A stretch of 44,982 nucleotides of DNA from Atractiella rhizophila (lineage: Eukaryota): positions 6,023 through 51,004 of the forward strand of contig MU271519.1 in assembly GCA_021432655.1 (NCBI GenBank). The letters run 5' to 3'. The translations under genes were made by a program, and so were the position numbers. This document shows positions 17,328 to 19,832 of the stretch, one piece after another. Below the pieces are notes generated by a model, which made no database searches, was not told the DNA's origin, and saw only the letters and a program-made list of their open reading frames with translations. Positions within the stretch are counted from its first letter, which is position 1. Each line of letters opens with the position of its first letter.

Positions 17328-19832
17328 TTACAGTTTGCCCTTCTTCTCCACATACTCATCTGTCTCAGCGTCAGCACTACAGGTCAGGGGACGGATGTAC
17401 ACTCACCAGGATAAAGCATCAGTTCTGGTTTGACTTTCTCATCAAACTCTTCTGGCGTCAAGAAACCAAGTTCCACTGTTGCCTGCTTCAGAGTAGTTCC
17501 TTCCTTGTGTGCCTTCTTGGCGCATTTGGCGACGTCTAACCTCCGATTTAAGCTCACGAGTGGATAGGAATATGGAAACTCACTGTCGTAGCCAAGATGA
17601 GAGTTGAGGATCGTTGCAAGCATGAGCGATTCGTTAAGGAGTTGAGTGATGCGGCTCTCGTTGGCCACAATGCCTACAATGCAGTTCTTGCGGAATGATC
17701 GACAACCTGGAATCGGTAAGCTTTACACTATCAATTAATGTGAACTGACCATCCGCGAGTAATCGAACGGAGTGGAGGAGGTTTTTGATCAAAACGGGCT
17801 TGAAGACATTTAGCTCGAATTGTCCGTAGCTACCAGCAACCGTGATGGCCGTGTTGTTACCCATGACCTTTACATCCAAGTGTTAGGCCGCTGTTTCAAT
17901 TCGAAAGGAAACAGCATACCTGAGCGCAGACCATGGTTAGAGCCTCGCACTGGGTAGGGTTGACCTTTCCGGGCATGATACTGCTTCCGGGCTCATTCTC
18001 AGGCAGGGAGAGCTCTCCGAAACCGCAACGAGGTCCAGAACCGAGGAATCGAATGTCATTCGCAATCTTCATCAAAGAGACTGCCAGAACGTTCAGAGCT
18101 CCCGAAGTCTCAACAATGGCGTCATGAGCAGCCAGGGCTTCGAATTTGTTGGGTGCTGTCTTGAAAGAGTAGCCGGTGATCTTGCTAATCTCCTCAGCGA
18201 CTTTAACATCGAACCCTTTGTATGTGTTAAGGCCCTGGTCCCCGCTATCAACACCCCCTCGAGTGTACAATGAGATATACGGACGGTTCCGACAGCCGTG
18301 CCTCCTTGAGCAAGGTACGACAGGCGTTCCAGACAAGCTTCGACGCGATCAAGGCCAAAAGTGAGTTGTTGAACGTATCCAGAAAACTCTTGACCAAGGG
18401 TCAAAGGAGTAGCGTCTTGCAAGTGTGTACGACCAATCTTGATGATGTTCGCCCATTCCTCGCTCTTCTCTTGCATCGCATCTCGGAGGGCAGCAAGCTC
18501 CGGTAGCAAGTGCTCCTTGATGCTGAGATAGGCTGAAATGTTCATGGCCGTGGGGAAGGAATCATTGCTCGATTGGGACATGTTGACGTGATCGTTGGGA
18601 TGCACTGGTTTCTTCGATCCTAGTTCGCCACCAAGAAGCTGAATAGCTCGGTTCGAAATTACCTGAGAGCATCCTTAATACTTTATAATGTCTCGCTTGG
18701 AGAAAGAAGCGCTAACCTCGTTCACGTTCATGTTTGTCTGGGTCCCTGATCCCGTTTGCCATACGACGAGGGGGAATTCATCGATCAATTTAAGCGAGAT
18801 AACCTGGAGAACAATAGTGTTAGTTTGCAAAAGTGTAATTATCCTGAACACAGGGGAAGATAGAAGCATGGCTCAATCCTCGTTAAACTCAATTGGATAA
18901 TATCCCTCGCCGGAAGGAATAGATCTAAACTATGGAAAAGGAGCTGTAAGACGATAACAAAATGACACAAAGTTGTGAACAATAGCCTCTACAAGTTTGG
19001 TATCTGCAGCGGTGTCGCCTTGTCTCCCATAATCATGATCGGCGCCGGATGAGGGAGGCAATCACCCGATAGGAGCAGACGCCAATGCAAAATATCGACA
19101 GGGCAAGTTTAGCCAGAAGCAGAGCGATTAATCGCTCGATCATGGTTCCATCAAGTGAGAAACAAAATGTCGGATGCCTGATAACACAGTCCCCACTACG
19201 CTTCATGCCTTCTTAACAAGACAGCGTCATGAAAATGAGGAGTGCCCTCTCACTCTAACCCTTTTATTAAATGCCAAATATACGTGTCTCAATTGGATGC
19301 GGATCGCGATGATGAGCATAACAGTGAAGCATGCATCCCAAAGCGCCTCATTCGCTCGTTGTGCTTTGGGTTTTATTGCACACCTATGATGACATTGCAA
19401 GGAACATCATATTCCTTGATTCTCTATTATTCTGAAACATGACGACTCCAATGGTTCATGCCTGCTCCATTTGATCGACCAAAGAGAGCTCACCTCACTA
19501 GCCGCCTTCTCGATAGCCTCCCCGACCTCCTTCTTCAGTCCAAATCCCACATTAACTCTCGCCGCTGCCATCTTGAGTATCCCAAAAGCCTTAATCAATT
19601 CCTCCGGCTGTCTCTCCCTCGCACCTCCAATATCAAAGTTCTGCAGACTCCTTTGAGTCTGCGCACCCCACAAGCGCTCAGCAGGCACTTGCAGAGGACC
19701 GAAGGTGTCAGATTCCTGACGGTACGATTGGGACATGGCGAAGTTGGTGGCGTGGAAGAAGCGAGGCTTGGTGGTTTGCAGAGGGAGAACGCGTTGCCGA
19801 ATGAGGGAACGGGGAAGACGGTTCATTCGCAT
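17328..19832 (-). CDS. FUM1: Fumarate hydratase, class II (fumarase), with N-terminal mitochondrial presequence
   Basis: Motifs [70 protein letters not shown], signature [25 protein letters not shown]. Exon 1 19832-19494, intron 1 19493-18804, last intron 17406-17360, stop TAA 17330-17328. Confidence 0.98.

Follow-up and report, generated by a model that had tools for sequence, protein, structure and literature searches.

The window analysed here, a stretch of 44,982 nucleotides from contig MU271519.1 of Atractiella rhizophila (assembly GCA_021432655.1), carries on its minus strand a class II fumarase gene that ends in a very short exon. The exon/intron model was rebuilt by script from window coordinates, and the features of the gene are listed below.

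17328..19832, minus strand: class II fumarase (fumarate hydratase) gene, ATG at 19832, stop codon at 17330-17328, 8 exons
19737..19832, minus strand: candidate mitochondrial presequence of 32 codons, outside the public annotation, which starts at the second Met
18804..19493, minus strand: intron 1, 690 nt, spanned by a joint skipping 690 nt in contigs of all four runs
17407..17535, minus strand: exon 7 of the gene model, coding for the last part of the fumarase C-terminal domain (...KPELMLYP, then base 1 of an Asp codon)
17360..17406, minus strand: terminal intron, 47 nt, phase 1, GTGAGT donor from 17406 and CAG acceptor ending at 17360
17384..17386, minus strand: in-frame TGA where translation would stop with the terminal intron retained
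17328..17359, minus strand: terminal micro-exon, 32 nt, 29 coding nt plus TAA (17330-17328)

Counted from the upstream ATG (19832) the product has 506 amino acids, while the annotated form has 474 and starts at the second Met (19736); read from this second Met, the translation equals in every residue the NCBI protein annotated as 'fumarate hydratase [Atractiella rhizophila]' (P0001). The spliced product with its GKL end is already in the public annotation. All seven introns of the model have GT..AG borders and all seven are skipped in RNA-derived contigs. Apart from intron 1 the introns are short, the remaining six measuring 43-54 nt each, and an Rfam search of 16800-20400 with E values up to 1 returned no matches, so that neither the 690-nt intron 1 nor the terminal one holds anything recognisable.

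The TIGR00979 fumC_II profile matched with 760.2 bits (cut-off 664.75), spanning residues 5-462 and profile positions 1-457 of 458, and P0001 carries precomputed assignments to PF00206 and PF10415. The conserved GSSxMPxKxN loop, a signature of the family, is present both in the translated model and in P0001, and S320, S321 and I322 are invariant in an alignment of 47 fumarase sequences. An AlphaFold2 model of the Atractiella enzyme gave a mean pLDDT of 85 and a pTM of 0.86. We conclude from the full-length profile match and the intact fold in this model that the protein is a class II fumarase (FumC/Fum1).

The 32-residue N-terminal extension contains seven Arg and Lys residues and no Asp or Glu. 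It is transcribed, as contigs of runs X19, X11 and X1 extend 5' of the ATG at 19832, and in related strains it carries an in-frame insertion of 9 nt.

Splicing of the terminal intron

The micro-exon provides the last two bases of an Asp codon, which is split into G (17407) and AT (17359-17358), followed by E-Y-V-E-K-K-G-K-L and TAA. A first-pass annotation of this DNA had described the 47-nt intron at 17406-17360, the micro-exon and the alternative C-termini with and without splicing, and in the script rebuild, read on the minus strand, all of these coordinates and both peptide ends proved correct. A branch-like CTGAC site occurs twice inside the intron, and its donor, branch and acceptor are the best fit to consensus among the seven introns of the gene.

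Splicing of this intron was directly supported by the contigs of runs X1 and X11, in which 17359 is joined to 17407 with 47 nt skipped (CT..AC ends on the plus strand); both cover the micro-exon past the junction, and the C-terminus that this exon encodes is that of P0001. The contig of run X2 (1386 nt) lacks the other six introns and its final 17 letters correspond to exon 8 (17353-17337), and the same loose end is found in run X19. We infer that these loose ends also represent the spliced terminal junction, because the start of exon 8 (ATGAGT) resembles the start of the intron (GTGAGT). A retained-intron isoform was not seen in the contigs, which show the spliced junction only, though a rare isoform could escape them; among the contig pieces listed, none covers 17360-17400 except for a 6-nt overlap with the donor, an absence that carries no weight as evidence. 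With the intron retained, translation would stop at the TGA after eight codons, and the loss would be limited to the tail, with the fold left intact.

It had been suggested that the terminal exon may exist in order to add a PTS1 and that splicing generates isoforms with and without it. Neither suggestion found support in this analysis. The intron lies within the Asp codon of '...YPDE', with which basidiomycete fumarases usually end, and because of this we conclude that splicing is the default route to the protein and not a PTS1 add-on. It can be seen that the splice restores an ordinary '...LMLYPDE' and that, relative to the basidiomycete fumarase end, the last eight residues, YVEKKGKL, are all that is new.

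Other possibilities around the 3' end were considered and rejected. A bound on retention from the bin depths of run X19 (390 in 17292-17387 against 7409 in 17388-17483) was set aside, as depth is flat per contig and most of the pieces (170) lie outside those listed. Use of the 'tag' at 17379-17377 as another 3' splice site is implausible, since it would require a 27-nt intron and would lead into an unrelated long reading frame, and read-through of the TAA-C stop codon gives no PTS1-like end in the frame downstream. Among the rows listed for strains that are 95-99% alike (X1, X2 and X11) no differences were found in 17328-17359, a comparison with no power given that about one change was expected and that 31 rows lie outside those listed.

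The C-terminal tail as a candidate PTS1

The canonical PTS1 tripeptide is [SAC][KRH][LM], and a wider pattern, [STAGCN][KRH][LIVMAFY], is also in use; the C-termini were scored against both, as strict and relaxed, respectively. In the spliced transcript G-K-L is directly followed by TAA and so has the extreme C-terminal position of a PTS1. It fits the relaxed pattern only, the canonical one being missed owing to the Gly at -3. With the composition of the 351 fumarases that we collected, a random C-terminal tripeptide would fit the relaxed pattern with p = 0.019 and the strict pattern with p = 0.003. Because GKL fits the relaxed pattern only, chance could account for the match taken by itself, given that this one protein was singled out in a large genome scan. 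Lys residues are found at -4 and -5, with Glu at -6 and Asp/Glu at -9 and -10, leaving the terminal 12-mer net neutral.

We compared the length of the tail with that in other fumarases and asked where it lies relative to the fold. Among 339 fumarases with an intact C-terminus the tail after ...M[LIVM] ranged from 1 to 13 residues, and the Atractiella tail, with 12 residues past ...LML, was the second longest. The fumC_II profile stops at Leu462 of 474, inside exon 7, and the last 12 residues lie beyond it. In the AlphaFold2 model the final helix (459-462) is followed by coil, with a pLDDT of 55 for residues 461-470 and 36 for 471-474, and below 50 for 469-474. The tail is therefore predicted to be flexible, accessible and outside the conserved fold, as a PTS1 needs to be.

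In the literature searched the sole direct import test of GKL was that in PMC6770196, where a human reporter consisting of EGFP fused to the EHHADH 12-mer became mostly cytosolic, with slight residual import, when SKL was changed to GKL; the apparent PEX5 affinity in a human FRET assay was 1.42 for GKL against 6.44 for SKL (PMC6770196, Table 3). Elsewhere, excerpts from PMC7082770 list GKL as the PTS1 of the glycosomal galactokinase of T. cruzi, and an excerpt from PMC12960970 describes it as a motif that evolved in the AGT of fruit bats and sloths. AKI, which also bears on the fungal sequences described below, sufficed for import in Histoplasma (PMC13343957, section 10). We conclude that GKL can serve as a PTS1 but is a weak or poor signal in the human reporter. 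The proposal of a PTS1 is thus supported by the fit to the relaxed pattern and by the two upstream lysines, and not by the canonical tripeptide or the reporter result.

Fumarase C-termini across fungi

Conservation of a PTS1-like end in orthologues had been named beforehand as a check, and it went against the proposal: none of 118 further basidiomycete-type fumarases has such an end, strict or relaxed. All 118 have acidic ends (...PDEA, ...PDEP, ...PDEE), and two Pucciniomycotina-type sequences, the closest in type, end in ...YPD without a PTS1. The PTS1-like end is therefore not conserved among the basidiomycete-type orthologues seen. A metagenome scan with P0001 kept 80 loci, 57-68% identical over their best segments, without an Atractiella relative among them; the matches are single and uninterrupted, look like intronless prokaryote-type fumC genes and are uninformative on conservation of exon 8 or on intron position.

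Outside this group the picture is more varied. Canonical AKL or SKL ends were found on ten fungal fumarases, all Dothideomycetes where named, a frequency that is overstated because the query behind the AKL count itself ended in AKL. The carriers include Dothidotthia, Ascochyta rabiei, Microthyrium, Trichodelitschia, Rhizodiscina, Aulographum and Eremomyces, and two of the AKL/SKL fumarases (P0011 and P0239) have long presequence-like N-termini. Two Mortierellaceae fumarases end in AKI and one other fungal fumarase ends in ...EYKGKL. Since AKL/SKL or AKI ends appear in independent fumarase lineages, a peroxisomal pool of this enzyme seems to be under selection in fungi. Localisation data for the AKL/SKL-ending fungal fumarases were not found in the literature searched. 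Most of the 121 Pezizomycotina sequences listed end in ...PKEKK, ...PKERK or similar; as lysine-rich ends without a PTS1 are the rule there, a basic tail need not mean peroxisomes. In the sampled fumarases of saccharomycete type the last residues are ...MIGPKD or ...MLGPK, again without a PTS1.

Possible roles of the tail and comparison with known systems

Fumarase is a textbook example of one gene serving both mitochondria and the cytosol/nucleus, and the Atractiella gene could encode, on one polypeptide, both a candidate presequence and a PTS1-like end. We tentatively favour the reading that the YVEKKGKL tail is a weak, constitutive, non-canonical PTS1, with GKL helped by the Lys residues at -4 and -5, while holding this at somewhat less than even confidence. 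The 47-nt phase-1 intron is removed, the micro-exon completing ...LMLYPDE and adding the eight lineage-specific residues. A small part of the fumarase, either not imported into mitochondria or returned from them, would be picked up by Pex5 and would enter peroxisomes as folded enzyme. On a single, constitutively spliced product a strong N-terminal signal would compete with a weak C-terminal one, and this competition, not alternative splicing, would decide how the enzyme is divided among mitochondrion, cytosol and peroxisome.

A potential explanation that would not need to invoke peroxisomes is that the tail is inert, that is, a neutral lineage-specific extension (arising for example by loss of an ancestral stop codon after ...PDEx) in which GKL occurs by chance, with the enzyme mitochondrial and cytosolic as in other fungi. 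We regard this as a serious possibility, although it too falls short of being probable. It accounts well for the lack of a PTS1-like end on any of the 118 orthologues, for a tripeptide that is non-canonical and performs poorly in the human reporter (PMC6770196) and for a relaxed match whose chance probability is about 0.02, and the spread of 1 to 13 residues among the 339 fumarases indicates that this end of the protein drifts. It sits less easily with a tail that is the second longest of those 339, with a K-L core preceded by lysines at -4 and -5, a layout that the first-pass annotation held to favour Pex5 binding, and with the independent lineages that carry canonical AKL/SKL or AKI. The basic residues E-K-K-G-K-L might instead do another job, as a weak element for import into or retention in the nucleus or as a lysine modification site paralleling the ascomycete ...PKEKK. 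K-K-G-K matches the short basic pattern K-[KR]-x-[KR], and the basic ends of most of the 121 Pezizomycotina sequences listed suggest that fungal fumarases have repeatedly retained such a tail; in addition, an excerpt from PMC9549241 cites a cytosolic/nuclear role for the yeast enzyme. However, the acidic ends of all 118 basidiomycete-type fumarases argue that this phylum needs no basic tail, and we consider such a job improbable.

Least probable of all, in our view, is a splice-regulated switch in which condition-dependent retention of the terminal intron would yield a form without the signal and splicing the PTS1 form. The architecture allows for it, since the in-frame TGA after eight codons would remove the tail alone, and fungal precedents are described in an excerpt from PMC3798809. 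Nevertheless, the restoration of the conserved ...YPDE end points to splicing as the ancestral default, the splice signals of the terminal intron are the closest to consensus in the gene, the spliced junction alone was recovered (with the reservation that a rare isoform could escape contigs), and a switch would in addition need a working PTS1. As regards triple targeting, a presequence-like N-terminus exists, making it possible for both signals to lie on one chain. The literature searches agree with the first-pass annotation that a peroxisomal fungal fumarase is not an established fact, and overall its observation is confirmed and its interpretation partly supported.

If the tail is the weak PTS1 that we favour, it may be one instance of a broader trend, in which fumarase was recurrently recruited to fungal peroxisomes by separate gains of a PTS1 (AKL/SKL in Dothideomycetes, AKI in Mortierellaceae, GKL in Atractiella and one other fungus), and in which the Atractiella enzyme would occupy three compartments, place the malate/fumarate step in peroxisomes and perhaps tether peroxisomes to mitochondria. 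We think this wider proposal rather unlikely as it stands. Already against the weak PTS1 in Atractiella, fumarase is not known to have a clear metabolic role in fungal peroxisomes, and yeast fumarase, according to an excerpt from PMC9513677, serves to mark mitochondria when peroxisomes are fractionated. We know of no peroxisomal fumarate reductase in fungi. If true, a peroxisomal fumarase would extend the set of TCA/glyoxylate-related enzymes shared with peroxisomes, would raise the question of what peroxisomal fumarate is used for (redox shuttling, or a link to glyoxylate-cycle succinate) and would bring a soluble enzyme into the class of presequence and PTS1 proteins able to tether mitochondria and peroxisomes. 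If the tail is inert, what remains is simply a gene whose annotation is correct and whose C-terminus drifts. The fungal 12-mers ending in AKL, SKL, AKI and GKL offer cheap material for a comparative test.

The systems with which the Atractiella fumarase can be compared each share part of its layout. For Yarrowia lipolytica MDH2 and Ustilago maydis GAPDH, excerpts from PMC3798809 document two mRNA isoforms, with alternative 3'-end splicing creating the PTS1. As in those cases, a central carbon enzyme has a candidate signal encoded past a 3'-terminal intron, which the unspliced form would lose; unlike them, Atractiella shows the spliced form only, the splice restores the family end and the tripeptide is non-canonical. 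Cat2, Ptc5, Pxp2 and Tes1 combine an N-terminal mitochondrial presequence with a C-terminal PTS1, are sorted by competition between the signals and belong to proteins that can tether both organelles (excerpts from PMC10906886 and PMC9549241). The predicted layout of the Atractiella enzyme, with a presequence-like N-terminus and a PTS1-like C-terminus, is the same, with the difference that PTS1 function in those four proteins was shown by experiment.

Closer relatives are found within the fumarase family itself. Saccharomyces cerevisiae Fum1 reaches its mitochondrial and cytosolic distribution from a single translation product, as cited in an excerpt from PMC9549241; it has the same family assignment (TIGR00979), one gene and a presequence, and in a similar arrangement the cytosolic pool would be the Pex5 substrate, but the saccharomycete-type enzymes end without a PTS1. 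The AKL/SKL fumarases, from Dothideomycetes where named, are likewise class II enzymes with a short C-terminal addition bearing a PTS1-type tripeptide. Their tripeptide is canonical and lengthens the usual ...PKE(K)K terminus by just one or two residues, whereas in Atractiella a longer tail, of unrelated sequence, terminates in the weak GKL. Finally, excerpts from PMC7082770 and PMC9512073 describe a glycosomal succinic branch in trypanosomatids that comprises PEPCK, MDH, fumarate hydratase and NADH-fumarate reductase; in the same excerpts the location of the fumarase is disputed, being cytosolic in T. brucei and detected in glycosome preparations of T. cruzi. The trypanosomatid glycosome is the sole setting that we found in which fumarate/malate interconversion is discussed for a peroxisome-type organelle, and the logic that it may offer is redox balancing, by way of malate to fumarate to succinate.

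Gene model and splicing of the terminal intron

The 3' part of the fumarase gene was read on the minus strand over 17200-19600, with landmarks located by script and exons joined by their coordinates, which gave an eight-exon model.

Exons of the fumarase gene, in window coordinates
19832-19494, minus strand, exon 1
18803-18717, minus strand, exon 2
18662-18285, minus strand, exon 3, encoding 126 aa
18234-17920, minus strand, exon 4
17867-17750, minus strand, exon 5
17706-17584, minus strand, exon 6
17535-17407, minus strand, exon 7
17359-17328, minus strand, exon 8 (terminal), with TAA at 17330-17328

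Introns 1 to 7 (690, 54, 50, 52, 43, 48 and 47 nt) all have GT..AG ends, and the splice signals of the terminal intron, which runs from a GTGAGT donor at 17406 to a CAG acceptor ending at 17360 and contains the CTGAC motif twice, are the best among them. This intron interrupts a codon for Asp, whose G lies at 17407 and AT at 17359-17358, and if the intron is retained an in-frame TGA at 17386-17384 closes the fumarase frame. The first-pass annotation had proposed this intron together with the spliced and intron-retained C-terminal peptides, and its coordinates and both peptides proved correct on re-reading and scripted joining. Intron 1 (18804-19493, minus strand) stands out at 690 nt against 43-54 nt for the other six, and had no Rfam match. 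Introns 6 (17536-17583, 48 nt) and 2 (18663-18716, 54 nt), also on the minus strand, are multiples of three in length, and because no in-frame stop interrupts intron 6 (ORF 17384-17722), its retention would insert 16 residues without truncation.

Parts of the stretch were found in 24 sequencing runs, and assembled RNA-derived contigs from four of these, each from another study (X1, X2, X11 and X19), were compared with the gene over 17100-19950. It can be seen that 17359 was joined to 17407 in contigs of X1 and of X11, the latter recorded as a metatranscriptome, with 47 nt skipped between CT..AC on the plus strand, that is GT..AG on the gene strand. A 1386-nt X2 contig lacked the other six introns but stopped at 17401, after which came 17 letters of exon 8 (17353-17337), and X19 had the same loose end. 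As exon 8 begins ATGAGT and the terminal intron GTGAGT, we infer that the alignment ran six bases into the intron and that the X2 and X19 contigs also carry the terminal splice. Intron 2 was skipped in three runs, the terminal intron in two and probably in these two as well, and the other five in all four. The proposal that the terminal intron is spliced was therefore borne out, although assembled contigs establish that the spliced form exists rather than its share, and leave room for a minor retained form. Differences from the window in X1, X2 and X11 were mostly three bases apart, indicating related strains or species and not the source itself.

Intron 1 was cleanly skipped in all four runs; some X19 contigs of low depth, which have small indels, covered parts of it. 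The X19 contig of depth 559 also lacked 2 nt at 17326-17327, immediately past the stop codon; this gap lies in the 3' UTR and so leaves the coding sequence untouched, and it reflects either divergence between strains or a slight misassembly of the window. Elsewhere in the window, 20847-22237 and 23647-25037 form a tandem duplication of period 2800, in which at least 1391 nt are identical letter for letter, equal-length ORF pairs recur at +2800 and GHMP_kinases_C matches both copies with the same score; either a very recent copying event or an artefact of assembly could account for it. A polyubiquitin gene (32387-33772, minus strand) has a single open frame of 462 codons with six ubiquitin repeats.

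The fumarase protein and its C-terminal end

In a protein search the exon 3 product was 100% identical to P0001, the annotated A. rhizophila fumarate hydratase (474 aa, encoded on a 51,004-base contig), which starts at the second Met of our model and shares its C-terminal end; the spliced form is therefore already the public annotation. P0001 matched TIGR00979 (class II fumarate hydratase) over residues 5-462 with 760 bits (cut-off 664.75), so its last twelve residues lie outside the family profile. The protein collection contained no close relative, the next best matches being only 79% identical over exon 3, a very conserved part of fumarase. Upstream of the annotated start the frame stays open to an ATG at 19832 (19737-19832, minus strand); the 32 residues so gained include 7 Arg+Lys and none that is acidic. 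In X19, X11 and X1 there are contigs that reach 5' of this ATG, and in related strains a 9-nt insertion that keeps the frame lies within the stretch, as expected of a coding, loosely constrained presequence. The annotated protein thus probably lacks its putative mitochondrial presequence.

A search seeded with exon 3, and hence blind to the C-terminus, returned 120 rows, 108 with an intact end. Saccharomycete- and Mucoromycota-type fumarases ended ...M[IL]GPK(D), and basidiomycete ones ...ELML[YHG]PD, ...PDEA, ...PDEP or ...PDEE. A second search, seeded with P0001 residues 395-474, gave 118 new rows, the named ones from Agaricomycetes, Dacrymycetes and Tremellomycetes, and all 118 ended ...ELML[YHG]P plus one to ten residues, most commonly DEA, DEP, DEV, DEE or DP. 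The expectation of a conserved PTS1-like end in related basidiomycetes failed, since none of these 118 fitted either the strict ([SAC][KRH][LM]) or the relaxed ([STAGCN][KRH][LIVMAFY]) pattern. The 'DE' formed by the splice is the ordinary basidiomycete fumarase end, so that YVEKKGKL alone is new; the Atractiella tail extends 12 residues beyond ...LML, which ranks it second in length among 339 intact fumarase ends.

The query of the third search was the C-terminal 88 residues of the Dothidotthia fumarase. The usual Pezizomycotina end was ...PKEKK; canonical ...KEAKL, ...KESKL or ...NEAKL ends were found on nine new fumarases and the query, ten in all (P0011, P0239, P0247, P0249, P0250, P0252, P0253, P0257, P0329 and P0348), a count that over-represents such ends because the query itself ended AKL. 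The named bearers, all Dothideomycetes (Dothidotthia, Ascochyta rabiei, Microthyrium, Trichodelitschia, Rhizodiscina, Aulographum and Eremomyces), are patchily spread over genera, and two of the ten (517 and 529 aa) also have long Arg/Ser/Ala-rich N-termini. In addition, two Mortierellaceae fumarases ended ...KAKI and one 366-aa fumarase ...KEYKGKL. The literature searched contained no localisation or report of the AKL/SKL-ending fungal fumarases.

GKL as a candidate targeting signal

The first-pass annotation held that GKL fits the extended PTS1 consensus; this is so for the relaxed pattern that it quoted, but GKL is not a canonical tripeptide by the strict one. A C-terminal tripeptide would fit by chance with a frequency of 0.019 (relaxed) or 0.003 (strict). 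Lys at -4 and -5 should presumably favour the signal, and no such help is expected from Glu at -6 or from the acidic residues farther from the end. An AlphaFold2 model of P0001 from a 47-sequence alignment (mean pLDDT 85) placed the last helix at 459-462 and gave pLDDT below 50 for 469-474, and the tail is accordingly predicted to be free of the fold.

The apparent PEX5 affinity of an EHHADH 12-mer fell from 6.44 to 1.42 when its SKL was changed to GKL, and the EGFP reporter became 'predominantly cytosolic' with slight residual import (PMC6770196). GKL is among the AGT motifs evolved in fruit bats and sloths (PMC12960970) and is given as the PTS1 of a T. cruzi galactokinase (PMC7082770). Uncommon tripeptides, among them AKI, HKL and PKL, suffice in Histoplasma (PMC13343957), and a basidiomycete can possess two Pex5 receptors that differ in tripeptide preference (PMC9133605). 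On this evidence GKL is a weak, context-dependent signal.

We conclude that the terminal intron is constitutively spliceable, that splicing restores the conserved fumarase end and that the tail, predicted to be flexible, is lineage-specific. The tail may work as a weak PTS1, through which Pex5 would carry a minor part of the fumarase outside mitochondria into peroxisomes, partitioning being set by competition between signals on one fumarase protein; this is the likeliest reading, though short of even odds. Nearly as likely is that the tail is inert and drifting, no such end being shared by the 118 further basidiomycete-type fumarases. Some other role for the basic tail is improbable, and least probable is a true splice switch.

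The literature searched yielded no account of fungal fumarase in peroxisomes, in line with the first-pass annotation, which knew of none being established, although the 2012 Ustilago candidate lists or the 2016 fungal PTS1 revision could already name fumarase. The phrase 'peroxisomal fumarase' was likewise absent there, related matches citing fumarase as an example of mitochondrial or dual targeting, or dealing with trypanosomatid glycosomes. Splice-dependent PTS1s are established for Yarrowia MDH2 and Ustilago GAPDH, and read-through PTS1s are likewise established (PMC3798809). Proteins combining a mitochondrial presequence with a PTS1 are also an established kind, and competition between signals on one protein is described for Cat2, Ptc5 and Pxp2 (PMC10906886 and PMC9549241); the same is what we tentatively propose for the Atractiella fumarase.
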